Source: a virus (taxonomy: Duplodnaviria > Caudoviricetes). From it: a stretch of DNA of 64,000 bases. The stretch is from positions 64,001 to 128,000 of the IMG/VR virus record IMGVR_UViG_2595698455_000001. One strand, written 5' to 3'. The notes beneath the pieces were generated by a model. The model was not told the origin of the DNA. It did not search any database and saw nothing but the letters and a program-made list of their open reading frames with translations. The translations under genes and the position numbers were made by a program. Positions within the stretch are counted from its first letter, which is position 1. Each line of letters opens with the position of its first letter. Below, piece after piece: positions 17,572 through 42,895 of this stretch.

Positions 17572-18762
17572 CTATTTCCTTATCATATCCAGAAGACTTC
17601 TTGATTTGGTAGAGGGTGTTCCTTCCCCATCATAACCTACCTTCCCGCGTGGTTTTTTGCCTTGGTTAACAGCTTCTACGCAACGAACATATTTTTGCAA
17701 CTCACATGCCATATTCTCGATGCTCATCACATTCATACACTGATCCCAAGGCTCTTCCGCAGACCAGAATTGCTCACGAACATATCCATATTGGGAATAC
17801 ACTGCGTCCTGGTTGTCCCGCAACCAGAATATGCATTCTTCGTGAGTCATGCCGTCTTTGTTCAGGAACATCAGGTCGATCCCAGCGCGACAGCCTGGAC
17901 CAGCAATAGTGAAATGGTTTTCGCTGAATGGGTAGCCGGGAATGTAAGTAAAATCCACCCAGATCTGATAAGCCAGGAATGGACCCAGACCTTCGATTTC
18001 GTCGTACATGGCCTGATAGACTTCATCTGGGGATTCACAATCCAACAGGCGCTCAAAGTAATCTGGATACTTGGTGACAAATGCTTTCAGAGAGCGGATA
18101 ACACGCATCGGCATGTATTGTTCCCAGCCTTCGATGGTATACTCACTAGGATTCTCTTCGACCAGATTCTTGGCGACCTTGTAATCCATCTCGTCCACAA
18201 TACCCTGACCAACACGATACACTTTCACCATCATCCCGCCGAAGCGCTGCTCCTTATGGTTGACGACCAGTTCAGGGAACGCCAGACACTGCTTCAGGCC
18301 GCCTGTGTTGAAGGCATTGGTGAACACCTTGCCACCATCGGCTTCGAACTTCTGTAGACGTTCACGGGTCACATCAAGGTTGATCTTGGCGAAGTCGGAG
18401 ATCGTCATCGCGCCGCCGATAGCCTGGATCGGATCCCAGAGGTTGAACATGCGGAACAACACGCAGTTGAACATCTTGTCTGGCATGGACAGAGCATCGT
18501 TGTTGACGATGTTGTTGATCAGGTTAAGAGACTGCCTGTCGTGCTCTCTACGGACATTACAAAACTTAACTTGCCGTAATATCGGATTGTCTGTCCAAGG
18601 AGCAGGAAGACCCTGAATGTCCTTTCTCACATGAATCTGATAACGATCATGCATCCATTCATAAGACCATTCCACAATTTGCTGGTCCAGAGTGGGGGTG
18701 GCGGATTTAATCTTCGTTTCGCGGACACCACAATAAGGGATGTCACGTGGTTTATCTTTCAT
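17572..18762 (-). CDS. aGPT-Pplase1-like (5-hmdU hypermodification-associated, glycosylase-fold) protein
   Basis: PWTDNPILRQVKFCNVRREHDRQS, LFRMFN, GLGPFLAYQIWVD, IAGPGCRAGID, IENMACELQKY. Confidence 0.75.
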   Translation of the reverse strand: MKDKPRDIPYCGVRETKIKSATPTLDQQIVEWSYEWMHDRYQIHVRKDIQGLPAPWTDNPILRQVKFCNVRREHDRQSLNLINNIVNNDALSMPDKMFNCVLFRMFNLWDPIQAIGGAMTISDFAKINLDVTRERLQKFEADGGKVFTNAFNTGGLKQCLAFPELVVNHKEQRFGGMMVKVYRVGQGIVDEMDYKVAKNLVEENPSEYTIEGWEQYMPMRVIRSLKAFVTKYPDYFERLLDCESPDEVYQAMYDEIEGLGPFLAYQIWVDFTYIPGYPFSENHFTIAGPGCRAGIDLMFLNKDGMTHEECIFWLRDNQDAVYSQYGYVREQFWSAEEPWDQCMNVMSIENMACELQKYVRCVEAVNQGKKPRGKVGYDGEGTPSTKSRSLLDMIRK

Positions 18763-18793
18763 GGTATCCTCACAGAATACGAAAACAGAGGCC

Positions 18794-18818
18794 ATTATAG
18801 CCTCTGCTGTTTAGTGAA
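18794..18818 (-). promoter_or_regulatory. TTCACT-N13-TATAAT promoter-like motif
   Basis: Direct match upstream of the aGPT-Pplase1-like gene. Confidence 0.6.
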
Positions 18819-18830
18819 TAACCGGATTTC

Positions 18831-19697
18831 TTAATCGATACGGGTCAGCTGTGTAATAGATGATTGCACTGGGCTGGTTACATAGATTCGGACATTGGCT
18901 TTCCATTCACCCCAGATCATCGGCAAAGCCGGGAAGTTGTCTTCGTTGAAAACAAACACAGGAATGTAGCTCTCAATCGTTTCGCCAGAGAATGCCTGGA
19001 AGCCCATCTTGGTGTATTCCACGATCTCGTCAATAAAATCGAACGGAGCGAAGGCAACACCAACGTGTTCGTTAGATCCGAGCTGGCCTGGAGTGGCCGT
19101 GCCAGTCAGAATGATTTCAGTGATCTGACGCTTAGGATTGCCAGTCAGCATATCAGAGAAGTCTGGCTCTTTGAATGCTGCCATGTTCTTCAGGAACTTG
19201 CCAGCCGGATACTCTTTCCCACCAACGGTGATCGTGTCAACCACTTTGATGCAAGCCTGTGGGAATTCACCTTGGATTTCCAGTTCGCCTTCGATGAACC
19301 CCAGGTCATAATAATATTGCAGAGCCGGACCAACTTCACCTTCGTTGCGAATGAACTTGCTCATGTTGGAGGCATAAACACGCTGCAAGCACTCGTCGCC
19401 GTCGAAACCAGTGATATGCGCCACACCATCGTTGACAGTGGTGATATCGCCCTGTGCGTCCATGATGTCTTTCATGACTTTATCCATGTCAACAACCTGA
19501 TCTACAACACGCGGCGACACAACCAGCTCTACTTTGACATCATGATCAAAATAGGCCGCTTCCAGCAGTTCACGGGTTTCTTCCAGCACCAGTTTCGCCT
19601 GATTGCGGATCTTGGTGAAATCGGGTGATGTAATATCGCCCTTTGCATTACCGAAAGCCAAATTCAGATTCACGTTTTTAGAAAATGTAGTTGTCAT
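18831..19697 (-). CDS. MazG-like all-alpha NTP pyrophosphohydrolase
   Basis: LVLEETRELLEA...DIMDAQGDI...VYASNMSK acidic motif. Confidence 0.72.
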   Translation of the reverse strand: MTTTFSKNVNLNLAFGNAKGDITSPDFTKIRNQAKLVLEETRELLEAAYFDHDVKVELVVSPRVVDQVVDMDKVMKDIMDAQGDITTVNDGVAHITGFDGDECLQRVYASNMSKFIRNEGEVGPALQYYYDLGFIEGELEIQGEFPQACIKVVDTITVGGKEYPAGKFLKNMAAFKEPDFSDMLTGNPKRQITEIILTGTATPGQLGSNEHVGVAFAPFDFIDEIVEYTKMGFQAFSGETIESYIPVFVFNEDNFPALPMIWGEWKANVRIYVTSPVQSSITQLTRID

Positions 19698-31431: not shown

Positions 31432-32907
31432 TTAACGGTCTAATCGGTATTTGATCAATCCACAATTCCAAATCCTGACCAGCCCGGCTTCGGTTGCTAA
31501 CTGGCTTTCTGTTTTGCCTTCTACGTCATACCCCATCCGAGCAAATGAATCCTTTCTGAAACCGAACTTGTGCTCACGCATAAATGTACCAGGCTTGTGA
31601 TATTTGTAATCCGGCTTCTGTACTTCCTCTTCTGTGAACCCGTGGGATAGGTAAATGTTCGACAGTCTGCTTACGACACACCTGTCGCCAAAAGAATAGA
31701 TTGGGATACCAACAAATTCCCTTCTGAAGTGTGATAGAAGTTTACCGAACGCCCCATGACACTCATTAGAGGCAAATCTGACTAATTCCAGGCCATCTTT
31801 CCTTTTGGTAAACAACATCACAGCCTGTATCACACCAGCCTTATCAATTAGCGATAAGTGGTGGGTGGACGATACGGAACCTTGTATATGATGGGCGTCT
31901 AGAAACTCCCTCACACCGCTCATATTGCCCCAAACAACTTTATGTTGGCGAGCGTATGAGACAGGTGTTTTAATGCCGAGTTTTGCCTTCAGGAGGGATC
32001 TAACCACATCCTGTTTCTCAACCCATTCGTCTTCCCAAATATGAATCAACTGGATACCCTGAGATTCACACATTTCAGTCTTTTCCAGATGATATCGCTT
32101 CTCTTTAAAAACTTCTGAATGCCAATATAGCCCGTTAAATTCTATGGCAAGTTTGTGTCCCGGGCAATAGATATCCAGTTGTTTGCCGGACAATACATTG
32201 TAATCAGAAACCGTGTTCACTACTCCCATTGAGGTGAGAAACTGGGATATTTCTTTTTCATAAGAAGATTTCTTATGTCTGACAGAACCATTGTTGGACA
32301 GCGCACGTTTCAGTATGGCTGAGTTTTTCATGGGGTTATCAACCCCATAACGTTCCTGTAATGTTATTAACGTCTTCTCCCTCACACCCGGTAGTTGTAG
32401 GGTAGAGCTACTCCCATATTTGGATATGTTTGAATTCTCTATAACCTTCCGGCCAACCCCACCTTTACACATAGAAACTTGATAACATTCTTCAGAACAA
32501 TATGTTCTGTAATCTTTATCATTGATGTAAAAGTTGGTTTCCCTGGAACATACAGGACAAGACTTCGCGTTTCTATTGTGTAACCACGCCGTGATTTTAC
32601 AAGCCAGGTCTTGTAGGGTGTTATGGGCGTTGGCGAATAATAAGAGGTCCACCTTGATGTGCTTCATCAGCAGTTCGGATTTGCATTTCTGTATATCCAA
32701 CTTACCGTTCTTAGTGAACATATGCTTATGGAAAAATTGACGATATGAGTCTTCATCCGAAAGACACATTGCATCAGCAACAAATTCTGGGGTTAGATTT
32801 TTCATTGTGTTACTAGAAAATGTTTTACAACTGTCCGAACAAAATTTCTTATCTTTCCTGGCAGCTTTAAACTGTTCATGGCAGATGCTGCAGATTACCT
32901 GATACAT
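31432..32907 (-). mobile_element. Hef/Vsr-like endonuclease with zinc fingers, YG repeats and a C-terminal Mom-like GNAT domain
   Basis: CxxC...FCSxxC fingers; LDIYCPGHKLAIEFNGLYWHSE...LIHIWEDEW; LELVRF...YSFGDR...NIYLSHGF; AT-rich; paralog of 39128. Confidence 0.78.
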
Positions 32908-32962
32908 AATTGATCTCCGTTGTATGGTATCTAGTATAACCCGTTTAATGTCATGAACAAAT

Positions 32963-32986
32963 AAAAACCCCGCCGAAGCGGGGTTT
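32963..32986 (-). terminator. gp23 terminator with UUCG tetraloop
   Basis: Minus strand AAACCCCGC-TTCG-GCGGGGTTTTT. Confidence 0.8.
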
Positions 32987-33014
32987 GTTAGGACGTAAGC
33001 CATTGTTTTAATTA

Positions 33015-38303: not shown

Positions 38304-38837
38304 TTAAAGAGATCGGTCAGAGATGGCCTGGAAGTAACGCAGGTCAACAGTGAACTGAGTATATGAGTCCATCGCGGACATATCCAGTTCCAGCTGGCCG
38401 AGGTTCTGAGGCCAAGTGCCCTGCAGAGTCCAGGTTTTGGTGACGTTGTCGTTCGCGTCCAGCAACTCCATGATCACGTCACGGAAGTAGTCGTCAGCGT
38501 TAGCGCTCGCACGGTTGTTATTGCTGCCGTTGATGTACTGCTGCCAGACCTCAAAGGCGTTATATGGACCGTTCTCTACCACGTTGATGAAGGTGATAGG
38601 CAGCGCTTCAAAGCGACGGTCACCAGGGAATGGAAGTTCACGACCACCCCAAGGCACAAGTATTTCCCCGAGCTGGCCTGTTGGTGTATTTGTGGTGACC
38701 GCCAACAGCGAAACATCACGGATAGTATCGCTGCCAGCCACGAAGGAAGGGAAGTTAACAGTCACACGCCAACGGTGTTGGCGCTGAACGCCACCCCCGC
38801 GTGACATAGCTGCTCTGAATTCATTAACTGTACTCAT
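38304..38837 (-). CDS. 19: gp19 tail tube protein
   Basis: VPWGGRELPFPGDRRF...WPQNLGQLELD...FTVDLRY. Confidence 0.9.
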   Translation of the reverse strand: MSTVNEFRAAMSRGGGVQRQHRWRVTVNFPSFVAGSDTIRDVSLLAVTTNTPTGQLGEILVPWGGRELPFPGDRRFEALPITFINVVENGPYNAFEVWQQYINGSNNNRASANADDYFRDVIMELLDANDNVTKTWTLQGTWPQNLGQLELDMSAMDSYTQFTVDLRYFQAISDRSL

Positions 38838-39127
38838 AATCATTCTCCAAAATGTGGTTAGACAATTCTAATTAGCTGCCAACCAGTGGTCTTTAATCTT
38901 AAATCTGTGGCTCTCTTCCTTTGGTATATCCCAACTTCAGGAATTGGTCCAGAATCTATATGGCTGTTGGTAATCATTTCAATGACCTCTCTTGTATCGG
39001 GTATTTATTCCCCGAGAACCCATTGAAATGCCCTCCGAAGAGGGCATGGTCGTTCTCCTCTGAATAGTGTAAATATTTAGTTCTGAAATAAATGGGGTTA
39101 AAATATTCTAAAGTGAGGATATTTATT

Positions 39128-40918
39128 ATGCCATTCCCTGATAAAAACTGTTCATGTTGTCACAAACCATTCACCCCGACAAGGAAAGCTGCTTTGTATT
39201 GTGGTGATGACTGTAAATCATTCATGCTGGGAACGATGAAACGCAATCCGGGTTTGTTGGATGACATCCCAACTAACGAATCTGAGTGCCGCGTTTGGGT
39301 CGATAGTAAACTCAGGAAGAAAGATGGTTCGCTGAACTACAAACTCATTTCCCACCACCTACTCATGGCGCAGACAGGGCTTGATATTGTTGGTTACGTG
39401 GTAAAGCACAACGACCTTCTTGAAGAACCCCAAGCAATAACTGCTTGGCTATATGATATTCAGAAGTCTTGTTGTATCACTTGTGGTTCTGACGTAGGTT
39501 TGGAAATGGAAGTCAAACCACCGAGATACAAAAAGTTTTGTTCTGAAGAGTGTCAACGCGAATCAATGAAGATAGGAGGCGCAGAACGGGACAATTTAGA
39601 CAACTCCCTATCAGAGAAATATGGCGTAGCCAACATATTCCAACTGGAAAAGATAAAACAAAAGTCCCGGGAAACTGTCCTTAAGAAATATGGGGTCGAC
39701 CACCCTATGAAGTCTGATGTTATAAAGGACAGAGTGGCTGCTTCCGTCATGGAACGCTATGGCGTATCACACGTCATGAAAGTGCCAGAAGTGAGGGAAA
39801 GGGTGATTGAGACTTGGAGGAAGATCTATGGTGTGGATCATCCAATGTTCCTCAATTCCATTATAGAAAAGAGAAAGAAAACATGCGTCTTAAAATATGG
39901 GGTTGATTATCCGTTGAAGGTAAAGGCTATATGGGATAGAAGCCAGGCCAATACCAGGATCATTTCAAAAGAAAAATACGGCGTACCTCACTATTTCTCT
40001 TCTGAAGAATATAGGAACTCTTTCACATACCCCAGCAGCCAAAGCCAAAGCCAAACGCAACCAGAAATAGAAATATGTTCATACCTGGATTCATTGGGTG
40101 TTATTTGCGAATCTGGTAATTTCTCTATCTTGAAAGGCAAAATGTTCGACGGGAGGGTGACCACACGCCAGATAGACATATACTGCCCAGAACATAAGTT
40201 GGCAATAGAATTCAATGGGCTGTACTGGCATTCAGAGAAATATCGATACAAAGACTACCATCTTGAAAAGACCATGTACTGTGAAGCCCAGGGTATTCAG
40301 TTAATCCACATCTGGGAAGATGAGTGGCGTGACAAACAGGAAGTGGTTAAATCACTCCTTAAAGCAAAATTGGGGATAGGGAAACCGTTGTCGTACGCTC
40401 GCCAACATACCATTGTGGAAGGATCCTATAGAGCGTCCAAGGACTTCCTCGACCGATTTCATATACAAGGTAGTGCAGTGGCAACAGATTACATACACCT
40501 TGTAGACAAAACGGGGAACATTCAAGCAGTGATGCTGTTTACCAAACGGGTGCATGGTATTGAACTGGTGAGATTTGCTTCTAACGGTTGCCATGGTGCA
40601 TTCTCGCGCTTGTTGAAATATTATATCCCTCGACATCGGGGAGAGGTAGTATATTCTTTTGGAGATCGCTGTGTTGTCAGTCGTTTGAATAACGTTTATC
40701 TTAATAACGGGTTTATAGAGAAGGAAATCCTTCTACCTGATTACAAGTATGTGACCCCCGATTATCACCAACGAGTCCATAAATTCAGTTTTAGGAAAGA
40801 CAAATTTAGAGAACTCGGTTACGACATAGAAGGTAAAACAGAGGATATGCTGTCGTCAGAAGCTGGCTTGACGCGTATTTGGGGGTGTGGTCTGATACGT
40901 TACGAATTGGTAAAATAA
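39128..40918 (+). mobile_element. Hef/Vsr-like endonuclease with zinc fingers, six YGV repeats and a C-terminal Mom-like GNAT domain
   Basis: IDIYCPEHKLAIEFNGLYWHSE; KYGVDHPMK-type 23-aa repeats; IELVRF...YSFGDR...NVYLNNGF; antisense insertion between 18 and 19. Confidence 0.78.
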
Positions 40919-40941
40919 AAACCCCGCCAAAGCGGGGTTTG
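40916..40941. terminator. Bidirectional terminator between convergent gp18 and endonuclease genes
   Basis: AAAAACCCCGC-CAAA-GCGGGGTTT. Confidence 0.75.
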
Positions 40942-40944
40942 TTA

Positions 40945-42843
40945 TCAGGAGGCCGCGACGATACCACCACCAGTTTCGACTTCGCTAAATTCCATATCTG
41001 GGCGAACGGCGGCGAAATCAAGATACACCCAGTTAATGCTGTATTCAGGCTTGAGCCAGATACCCGCAACCATCTGGTTCGCAGCGATGATATCGGCAGT
41101 GTTGTTGTCTGCATCACACTTGACAGTACCGTCATAGATCGCGCCCATGTTGGTCAGCTGACGCAGATACGGACGCACCGCGTTGCTGAACAGGCTGCGA
41201 GTGAACTCATCGTTGTTCTCACCAAGGTAGTATTTGGCGATTGCAGCGATGTTCTGCTCGGCCATGATGAACAGGCCACGAACGTTGATGCGGTCGAACG
41301 CAGATGGGCGGGTCAGGCCAGTCTTGTCCCCGTACAGCACGATGCCTTCGTTGGAGAAAGTGACGATGCTGTTGATCTGGTTGCGGTACAGGACAGCACG
41401 CTCATCAGAAGACGCAGACCACGCCATGCGGTTGTAGTTGTTGTATTTGCCACGGTTGTGGAACGCTGGAGACTTGTAGATACCAGCCAGCTCAATGCTG
41501 CGTGCCCAAACACCCGCCGTACCACCACATGCAGGGATCCAACGCATCTTGTCGTTGTACTTGTCGTACACATACGCCCAGTTGTCGTCCATGAAGAAGT
41601 AGGAGGAGTCGCGCACCAGACTTTCACGCCAGGCCACAACATCATCCATCTCACGACCACGGTTGCCAACAACGTTATCTCGCAGTGGAGAAACGAAGGA
41701 CACGGTGTCTTTGCGCTCGGTAGACAGGTCGATGATGGCCTGCTGCTCGATGAGTTCTTCACAGTATGCGAACACTGGCTTGGCAGCGTATGCTTCTGCG
41801 TTGTTCAGAACTTCGATGGCCGCCACACGGTTCACGTCGTAATCGTCAACACCACCTTCCAGCTCGGTCACGCCAGCCGCCAGAGTATCGGTGAAGACAT
41901 ACACCCAGTTGGACGTGTCGTTGATCACATCTTTGAAGTATGCGTTCGCGCCGTCGGATTTCTTAGAACCCTGGGTCTGTTGCATCAGTTCATACTTCTC
42001 GATAATGGAGCCGGAAGTACCAACAGTGGTCACAACGTTGCCGATGGTGATACCTTTGGAGGCTTCAACCGACACAACAACTGCAGTTTGTGGACCGATA
42101 GCAACACGAGTGAAAGTCACAGTGTTGGACTTGGCCACCACATTGGTGAACTTGTTGGTCAGAGCCGCCAGATCAGTACCCAGCTGAGTAGCGATATCGG
42201 CCGCTGTGTCACCAGTCAGGAAGTCGTAAGCCACGCCATCAACAGTGATGTTACCATCAGCCGTCGCAGTACCAGACAGGGAGATACGCTCAACCTGACC
42301 GACAGCACCGGAAGAGTTGGTGATGCGACCCACTTTGTCCAGAACGACGATGTGATACTCACCAGCCTGTGGAGAATAGGCGAAGTTGTTGCGGAATTCC
42401 CAAGTCGGGAAAGACGCTGCATCACAAATGTTCACTGCCACATCGTTGCCCAGAGAGCCAGGATAACGGCCAGTCCAGGTGATAGATGCAGATGGGCTTG
42501 CTGATTCAAAGTCCAGCTTGTTCTTGATGGTGATCGCCGTCTGTCCTTTGGTCACAGAGTTCTTGGCCAGAGGACCGACAACACGGGTGACCCATGCCAT
42601 AGAACTATAGGACAGGAAGTCCGCCACGACCAGGAAGTCGACAGCAGTGTCATCGTTAGGTTTGAAGAATTTCTTCACCAGACCAGTCTCACCACCAGTA
42701 ACCAACACAGGGAGTTCAACTTCACCCCACTGGAATTTACCGACGGTCGCGCCCTGAACAACAACGGACGGAGACGTCTGAAGCGTGGCATCACGCTCCG
42801 TCCACTGTACGGACGGCGCAACGCTGAAGCTTGTAGTTGCCAT
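40945..42843 (-). CDS. 18: gp18 tail sheath protein
   Basis: SPSVVVQGATVGKFQWG, YDKYNDKMRW, LYGDKTG...SAFDRINVRGLF, KPEYSINWVYLDF. Confidence 0.95.
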   Translation of the reverse strand: MATTSFSVAPSVQWTERDATLQTSPSVVVQGATVGKFQWGEVELPVLVTGGETGLVKKFFKPNDDTAVDFLVVADFLSYSSMAWVTRVVGPLAKNSVTKGQTAITIKNKLDFESASPSASITWTGRYPGSLGNDVAVNICDAASFPTWEFRNNFAYSPQAGEYHIVVLDKVGRITNSSGAVGQVERISLSGTATADGNITVDGVAYDFLTGDTAADIATQLGTDLAALTNKFTNVVAKSNTVTFTRVAIGPQTAVVVSVEASKGITIGNVVTTVGTSGSIIEKYELMQQTQGSKKSDGANAYFKDVINDTSNWVYVFTDTLAAGVTELEGGVDDYDVNRVAAIEVLNNAEAYAAKPVFAYCEELIEQQAIIDLSTERKDTVSFVSPLRDNVVGNRGREMDDVVAWRESLVRDSSYFFMDDNWAYVYDKYNDKMRWIPACGGTAGVWARSIELAGIYKSPAFHNRGKYNNYNRMAWSASSDERAVLYRNQINSIVTFSNEGIVLYGDKTGLTRPSAFDRINVRGLFIMAEQNIAAIAKYYLGENNDEFTRSLFSNAVRPYLRQLTNMGAIYDGTVKCDADNNTADIIAANQMVAGIWLKPEYSINWVYLDFAAVRPDMEFSEVETGGGIVAAS

Positions 42844-42895
42844 AATCTTATTCCTTCTCGGTAGAGTTTCGCTCAATTTGAAAGATATTTAGTGA

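Follow-up and report, generated by a model that had tools for sequence, protein, structure and literature searches.

A predicted GNAT domain distantly related to Mom in a Hef-like homing endonuclease encoded between phage tail genes

In type IIG and IIC restriction-modification enzymes, a single polypeptide recognises DNA, cleaves it and modifies bases. The modifying domain is an S-adenosylmethionine-dependent methyltransferase, the sites are short, and the enzymes defend cells. The gene described here lies in a 64,000-nucleotide stretch of a tailed phage genome (IMG/VR record IMGVR_UViG_2595698455_000001, positions 64,001 to 128,000), which is called the window below. It encodes a three-part Hef-like (Vsr/EDxHD) homing endonuclease and is an ordinary member of a widespread family. 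It differs from the type IIG and IIC enzymes in having a predicted GNAT domain, long arrays of repeats, and the character of a mobile phage gene. The GNAT domain stands at the C terminus and is, by profile comparison, a distant relative of the DNA-modifying protein Mom of phage Mu.

The closest described enzymes are homing endonucleases. Hef of phage U5 cleaves nrdB, and the excerpted review text mentions no modification (PMC2988022, excerpt). The paper on the EDxHD nucleases ties Hef-type enzymes to the Vsr fold and mentions no further domain (PMC3239194). It also describes I-Bth0305I, which is active and ends with its nuclease domain (residues 167-266). I-Bth0305I resembles the product studied here in having an N-terminal modular DNA-binding region, presumed in the latter, followed by a Vsr-fold nuclease (95 of 97 residues aligned, 24% identity). 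It differs in being intron-encoded, in lacking a GNAT domain, and in using NUMOD and helix-turn-helix (HTH) modules where zinc ribbons and DUF7487 repeats occur here. The Hef and Hef-like enzymes of T4-related, ViI-related, Campylobacter and jumbo phages belong to the same phrog_3339 family and share its intergenic lifestyle. Nothing essential separates them from the studied gene; they differ in which N-terminal DNA-binding repeats they carry and in how many. Records named "Hef-like homing endonuclease" from Acj9, vB_SdyM_006, PTm1, AR9 and PA5oct match the C-terminal domain or the module of nuclease plus GNAT domain.

Mom (PF25680; crystal structure 8bv8) is a stand-alone protein of 231-241 amino acids (aa) without a nuclease. 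It is reported to modify N6 of adenine in double-stranded DNA and to depend on Gly-tRNAGly, not on coenzyme A (CoA) (PMC13219725, excerpt). An earlier study had argued for acetyl-CoA and iron (PMC7261163, excerpt). Because Mom uses Gly-tRNAGly rather than CoA, inspecting the C-terminal domain for an acyl-CoA pocket, a check suggested before, would not settle its chemistry. The two proteins share the GNAT fold and aligned counterparts of Mom residues H58, R111, S124, D149 and Y159, and each has an insertion between beta6 and beta7. Y59 and R151 are not common to both.

The fusion itself has been described. A REase-fold nuclease joined to Mom was predicted in jumbo phages and read as protective momylation with restriction, and PA5oct was said to have five nuclease-fused momylating enzymes (Iyer et al. 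2021, PMC7824862). Five places in PA5oct-like records match the module, and we infer from the counts that they are the published five. A PA5oct "putative homing endonuclease" was among the top structural matches of our gene product in the viral library (E 1.2e-27; query TM score, TMq, 0.86). The published fusions apparently belong to the same family as the studied gene. They occur in jumbo phages, whereas the copy studied here is in a 152-kb non-jumbo phage. They were given a restriction-modification reading, and the term homing endonuclease has 0 occurrences in that paper. Since the PA5oct copies belong to the family of the studied gene, a prediction of the fusion has already been published, and the coupling suggested in the earlier note on this DNA had not been overlooked. 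In the literature searched, which did not extend to Sandegren 2005, Iyer 2009, Iyer 2013 or supplements, we found no experimental test of the fusion and no paper that connects "Hef" with GNAT or Mom; earlier statements may exist.

The + strand open reading frame (ORF) spans 39092..40918 in the window. An in-frame ATG at 39092 would give a product 12 aa longer. The ATG at 39128 is the likely start because GAGGA (39115-39119) stands 8 nucleotides before it and because the resulting length of 596 aa resembles that of the nearest homologues (591-594 aa). The earlier note had chosen the same start. The nuclease strings that it quoted (IDIY, AIEFNGLYWHSE and IWEDEW) and the C-terminal ones (FHIQG, IQAVMLF, IELVRFAS, GAFSRLLKY, YSFGDR and NVYLNNGF) are all in the translation. 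The gene product matches the PHROGs profile phrog_3339 ("homing endonuclease") with E 4.8e-195. The nearest phage records label the gene "homing endonuclease" or "hypothetical protein". Nucleotide-level matches were to Escherichia and Salmonella phages, and the relative RPN242 is classed in Ackermannviridae. The parts of the gene are as follows.

39128..40918, + strand: free-standing gene for a Hef-like homing endonuclease of 596 aa, with its stop codon (ORF, phrog_3339 match).
39149..39214, + strand: first zinc-ribbon-like motif, CxxC...Cx3C (C8, C11, C25, C29; motif positions).
39470..39553, + strand: second zinc-ribbon-like motif (C116, C119, C138, C142; motif positions, weak zf-FLZ match).
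39614..40018, + strand: six tandem "KYGV" repeats (DUF7487), a predicted DNA-binding array (Pfam, E 1.6e-25).
40049..40381, + strand: Vsr-like (EDxHD family) nuclease domain, residues ~308-418 (fold and sequence matches).
40400..40915, + strand: Mom-family-like GNAT domain, residues ~425-596 (model, hhalign, Foldseek, VIA-align, viral structure library).

The C-terminal domain is predicted to adopt the GNAT fold. An AlphaFold2 model of residues 300-596 was built with a 142-sequence alignment. It had a predicted local distance difference test score (pLDDT) of 96.1 and a predicted template modelling score (pTM) of 0.91. A single-sequence prediction of residues 302-596 (pLDDT 34.3) was discarded. 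In VIA-align, model residues 126-297 matched many GNATs at Z 9-10.2 with 122-134 residues aligned. The third-ranked Foldseek match was the Mom crystal structure 8bv8 (E 2.3e-4). With Z values of about 10 and this Foldseek match, the GNAT fold that the earlier note proposed for the domain is confirmed at the level of the model. In the viral structure library (BFVD), 27 Hef-like or unnamed proteins came first, followed by Mom of phage FSL SP-031 (E 3e-7). A language-model protein atlas placed the domain among viral clusters annotated GNAT or Mom. The structure 8bv8 was absent from the VIA-align top 50. Mom is thus no closer than other GNATs at the level of fold, and the specific link to Mom comes from the sequence profile.

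That link appears only between profiles. BLASTP of the domain directly against Mu Mom found nothing (E 2.8), and Pfam and NCBIfam gave no match to the isolated domain even at E 10. An hhalign comparison of 142 sequences of the C-terminal domain family with 113 Mom homologues covered 110 columns (Mom 35-168) with a probability of 90.5% and an E value of 1.3e-6. Two controls, one with the Mom profile reversed and one in which the profile of the nuclease domain was set against Mom, gave 0.7% and E 0.08 each. In global mode the probability was only 46%, and the region past the GNAT core aligned unconvincingly. All the Mom motifs given in the earlier note (HY, LVGVLQW, MELNRM, QSFAD and GVVYQASNF) occur in the Mu Mom protein as translated from NC_000929. 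Motifs of the two families stand in register in the profile-profile alignment, which bears out the order and spacing claimed for them. We scanned 89 relatives with Pfam (the 11 weakest homologue matches plus 78 from the top of the C-terminal domain match list). PF25680 matched 12 of them at E<=0.01 and exceeded its gathering score (27.1 bits) in 3. The domain is best placed, on these profile matches, as a sister family of Mom outside PF25680, because the relationship is found only at the profile-profile level and below the gathering threshold.

Seven active-site residues of Mom have been defined by mutagenesis and a crystal structure: H58, Y59, R111, S124, D149, R151 and Y159 (PMC7261163 and PMC13219725, excerpts). 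R111, S124 and R151 are essential (same excerpts), and an alanine mutant of S124 is dead (PMC13219725, excerpt). The residues were paired from the hhalign register, and each column was counted over the 142 relatives.

H445, 40460-40462, + strand: pairs with Mom H58; H in 142/142.
I446: pairs with Mom Y59; I, M, L or V in 141/142.
R482, 40571-40573, + strand: pairs with Mom R111; R in 142/142.
S493, 40604-40606, + strand: pairs with Mom S124; S or T in 110/142, G or A in 28/142.
D513, 40664-40666, + strand: pairs with Mom D149; D in 136/142.
C515: pairs with Mom R151; R in 41/142; R514 adjoins it.
Y524, 40697-40699, + strand: pairs with Mom Y159; Y in 142/142.

Five of the seven positions are kept in the gene product (H445, R482, S493, D513 and Y524). 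Six columns are invariant in all 142 relatives (H445, R482, G490, Y524, Y539 and E572). All six lie in the GNAT part and none in the nuclease part. The aligned GNAT core contains four invariant columns, of which three coincide with the Mom active-site residues H58, R111 and Y159 (hypergeometric p ~6e-4, a value that is not independent of the alignment). An insertion of ~45 residues with short helices lies between beta6 and beta7 (residues ~536-581), topologically where that of Mom sits. Its residues Y539, Y541, R549, H551, K552, R556 and E572 (basic, aromatic and others) are highly conserved.

The nuclease domain is modelled as a Vsr fold, and conserved acidic and histidine residues are present. 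Model residues 9-119 matched 3r3p (I-Bth0305I) in VIA-align at Z 9.9 and a root mean square deviation (rmsd) of 2.7 over 95 aligned residues. The same domain matched 1cw0 (Vsr of E. coli; Z 9.4, rmsd 2.0, 99 aligned) and 3hrl (Z 9.2). By sequence, phmmer aligned the gene product with 3r3p at E 0.04. This alignment sets H368 opposite the H213A position of the 3r3p crystal and so pairs it with the catalytic H213 of I-Bth0305I. Residues D350, E361, H368, H378 and D398 are present, and each is kept in 133-140 of the 142 relatives (D350 140, E361 138, H368 140, D398 133). Below threshold, Pfam also gave the nuclease models REase_MTES_1575 and DUF559.

The N-terminal zinc ribbons and DUF7487 repeats are presumed to form a modular DNA-binding array. 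The KYGV repeats start at residues 165, 188, 211, 234, 257 and 284, with a period of ~23 aa. Relatives swap their N-terminal arrays freely, carrying DUF7487, DUF4379 zinc fingers, DUF723/CapR, HTH arrays, NUMOD or ROS/MucR. DNA binding is the likely function because of where the array sits and because relatives have zinc-finger, HTH or NUMOD arrays in its place.

The GNAT domain is the standard C terminus of Hef-like endonucleases and is not peculiar to this phage. A search with it matched 5133 representatives of 50%-identity protein clusters at E<=1e-3 and 141 phage records. The nuclease plus GNAT module of the AR9 copy matched 971 places in 397 phage records, with 5 places per genome in PA5oct-like phages and 11-12 in Campylobacter phages. 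Many of these places are annotated "Hef-like homing endonuclease". The phages come from many hosts and lineages, so a link between the domain and thymidine hypermodification, suggested before, carries no weight. We examined 172 proteins bearing the domain. The nuclease domain was also present in 162, and the C-terminal domain was almost always at the C terminus. Three representatives (P0034, P0124 and P0088) have lost nuclease motifs and keep every GNAT invariant. The D of IDIY and the E..NG motif are gone, and P0034 lacks the H of YWHS as well. These three may be domesticated or decaying derivatives.

Some records resemble the GNAT domain alone. BFVD entries A0A7T3KDC2, A0A8S5UCR1 and A0A8D4GM20 and some atlas clusters are viral proteins of ~180-220 aa of this kind. 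They may represent enzymes that work on their own, products of split genes or fragments created by gene calling. The family phrog_559 is labelled "HNH endonuclease", and its profile spans a Vsr-type nuclease and the Mom-like domain. Positions 306-599 of its 607 align to residues 309-594 of the gene product, and the label is misleading. Members of phrog_559 occur in terminase introns of Bastillevirinae (PMC11878797), from which no argument is drawn here. The copy in Bacillus phage AR9 (2344-4088) adjoins a gene for a virion RNA polymerase subunit and has an annotated early promoter just upstream. If the promoter annotation is right, this copy would be expressed early.

The gene is a free-standing, opposite-strand, low-GC mobile insert between conserved structural genes. 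The flanking genes and the other copies in the phage record are as follows.

38304..38843, - strand: tail tube gene (gp19-like; phrog_45, E 8.7e-56).
40945..42876, - strand: tail sheath gene (gp18-like; phrog_23, E 5.4e-112).
31432..33003, - strand: second copy in the window, a 523-aa ORF (tblastn, 41% identity over the full length; phrog_3339, E 3.9e-164).
~17736-19379 of the phage record, outside the window, + strand: further copy, intact, three-part.
~132351-133958 of the phage record, outside the window, + strand: further copy, intact, three-part.

The flanks agree with the gp18/gp19 location given for the gene before. It lies on the strand opposite to both neighbours and has a GC content of 0.41-0.44, against ~0.50-0.55 in the flanks. 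In phage RPN242 the same gap is occupied by a GIY-YIG endonuclease gene, and in LHE287 by two small ORFs. In the ViI-related phage LIMEstone1, a Hef-like gene is reported to adjoin the tail tube gene (PMC3296691, excerpt). The 152,427-base phage record contains 4 intact copies, with 6, 4, 2 and 4 repeats. The cysteines of both zinc-ribbon-like motifs are kept in all 4. The three paralogues have 62-64% identity in the nuclease plus GNAT part. The copy at 31432-33003 is directly downstream of the major head protein gene. It keeps the GNAT invariants and has G at the S493 position. One paralogue lies between the baseplate tail-tube-cap and baseplate wedge genes. We reject a pseudogene or a chance ORF in view of the four intact paralogues and the strong conservation. 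The gap shared with a GIY-YIG gene, the multiple copies and the varied arrays are the behaviour of a free-standing homing endonuclease.

The Mom-type domain may be a competent acyl- or aminoacyltransferase that acts on DNA near the target of its own endonuclease. We favour this account tentatively and place it a little short of an even chance. The N-terminal array would anchor the protein to a long specific site in or near the neighbouring conserved gene of a relative without the insert. The nuclease would cut this target, and recombinational repair would copy the gene in (homing). The Mom-type domain would flip a base out of the DNA to which its own protein is bound and would acylate or aminoacylate that base. 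The modification would be local to the enzyme's own site and would not cover the whole genome. Candidate donors are an aminoacyl-tRNA, as in Mom, or an acyl-CoA, as in classical GNATs; by Pfam, some relatives resemble CoA-type GNATs. The purpose may be self-immunity of the carrier allele, a block to simple religation, or marking.

A working enzyme is suggested because conservation in the protein is highest at the residues of the pocket and because P0034, P0124 and P0088 keep the GNAT invariants despite their lost nuclease motifs. I-Bth0305I is active without any domain after its nuclease, which argues that the GNAT domain is an added function and not a structural support for the nuclease. Local action is suggested because the domain is tethered to variable site-specific arrays and several differently armed copies occur per genome. 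The earlier note had proposed a gene that couples cleavage with modification, as a possible single-gene restriction-modification element. The coupling is reasonable given the GNAT fold, the kinship to Mom and the five of seven active-site residues. Genome-wide restriction-modification fares worse: it would not need the copy number and the variable N-terminal arrays, which fit mobile, site-directed homing genes.

Several points weigh against a DNA-modifying enzyme. To our knowledge, bulk nucleoside analyses of ViI-like phage DNA have found thymidine hypermodification and no modified adenine. The equivalents of Y59 and R151 are not kept, and R151 is essential in Mom. The S124 column is G or A in 28 of 142 relatives, including the second copy in the window. 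The gene product misses the Pfam Mom model (PF25680) and every GNAT model even at E 10. The insertion between beta6 and beta7 could not be aligned convincingly by hhalign to the HTH-like insertion of Mom, which is essential there (PMC13219725, excerpt). The invariant residues of the pocket could be used for recognition by base flipping, with no chemistry involved. Modification in trans during mixed infection cannot tell carrier DNA from target DNA, and the logic of self-immunity is not straightforward.

The alternative that survives best is a non-enzymatic domain. The Mom-like domain would be a DNA-binding, base-flipping or dimerising module that pairs two Vsr-type nickase domains on the target. 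We consider this somewhat unlikely. The lost equivalents of Y59 and R151, the G or A in the S124 column and the scores below every GNAT and Mom Pfam model all agree with it, as does the description of U5 Hef as a cutter of nrdB with modification unmentioned (PMC2988022, excerpt). Mom is a tight dimer and needs dimerisation for activity (PMC13219725, excerpt), and I-Bth0305I works as a homodimer (PMC3239194), so a dimerising GNAT domain would be useful to the nuclease. The invariant residues are nevertheless those of the pocket, which a mere dimer interface would not need. The members with decayed nucleases are hard to explain if the GNAT domain only serves the nuclease, and related EDxHD enzymes work without one.

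A classical restriction-modification system is improbable. The Mom domain would protect the adenines of the whole phage genome, and the nuclease would degrade unmodified DNA of the host or of superinfecting phages. We know of no bulk adenine modification in ViI-like phages. The 4-12 differently armed copies per genome and the long modular site-specific arrays attached to them also speak against such a system, and presence or absence at hot spots common to GIY-YIG genes is how homing genes behave and not what genome-wide defence would produce. Hef reportedly has a single target gene (PMC2988022, excerpt). On the other side, the system has been predicted in print (PMC7824862), the active site is conserved, and Mom of Mu protects DNA broadly (PMC13219725, excerpt). 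The early promoter annotated just upstream of the AR9 copy would also suit it.

Action on something other than DNA, either a protein of host or phage origin or, as with the TacT and AtaT toxins, a charged tRNA, with the nuclease fusion for delivery or regulation, is very improbable: fold matches of equal Z include the protein N-acetyltransferases RimI and Naa10/50, 5 of the 89 scanned relatives match the classical GNAT models Acetyltransf_1/7/10 at E<=0.01, and some known GNATs use tRNA or modify it (PMC13219725, excerpt), but Mom is the nearest named sequence family (12 of 89 relatives), the column of R111, which is thought to touch the substrate base in Mom (PMC7261163, excerpt), is invariant, and modules for binding and cutting DNA are permanently attached to the domain.

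The account of a Mom-type domain that marks DNA near its own target might extend to the whole family, which we regard as unlikely. The Hef-like endonucleases would then be a large unrecognised class of bifunctional homing elements, each with a Mom-type domain that marks its own recognition site. A bulky group from a charged tRNA or acyl-CoA would be put on one base. The mark would immunise the carrier allele or leave a break reparable only by recombination. The nuclease-decayed P0034, P0124 and P0088 would be domesticated sequence-specific DNA modifiers.

The role of the Mom-like domain in homing endonucleases is a real question, and it is now testable. The module is very common, yet its annotations go no further than "homing endonuclease", "HNH endonuclease" or "hypothetical". 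As far as we searched, the same proteins figure in two unconnected literatures, the work on Hef and EDxHD homing enzymes and the genomics of Mom-nuclease fusions. With the Gly-tRNA-dependent chemistry of Mom described (2023 preprint, 2026 paper), assays for a nuclease-written DNA mark exist. If these nucleases write such a mark, new sequence-directed DNA-modifying enzymes could be drawn from them, and they would reveal a new way for selfish nucleases to evade their own cuts or turn them to advantage. Otherwise, the domain would illustrate how the fold of an enzyme can be put to use in reading DNA.

The gaps around the gene contain two further features. A scan for sigma-70-type promoters around the gene found 8, against 4.9 +/- 2.3 in shuffles, which is not above expectation. 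The divergent gap between the start of the tail tube gene and the endonuclease gene contains a perfect 8-bp inverted repeat at 39026-39050 (ATGCCCTC cgaa GAGGGCAT). The gap on the other side contains a hairpin.

40919..40940, no strand assigned: G+C-rich hairpin between the endonuclease gene and the convergent tail sheath gene (consensus match, terminator-like on the - strand).

The T-run of this hairpin is weaker on the + strand.

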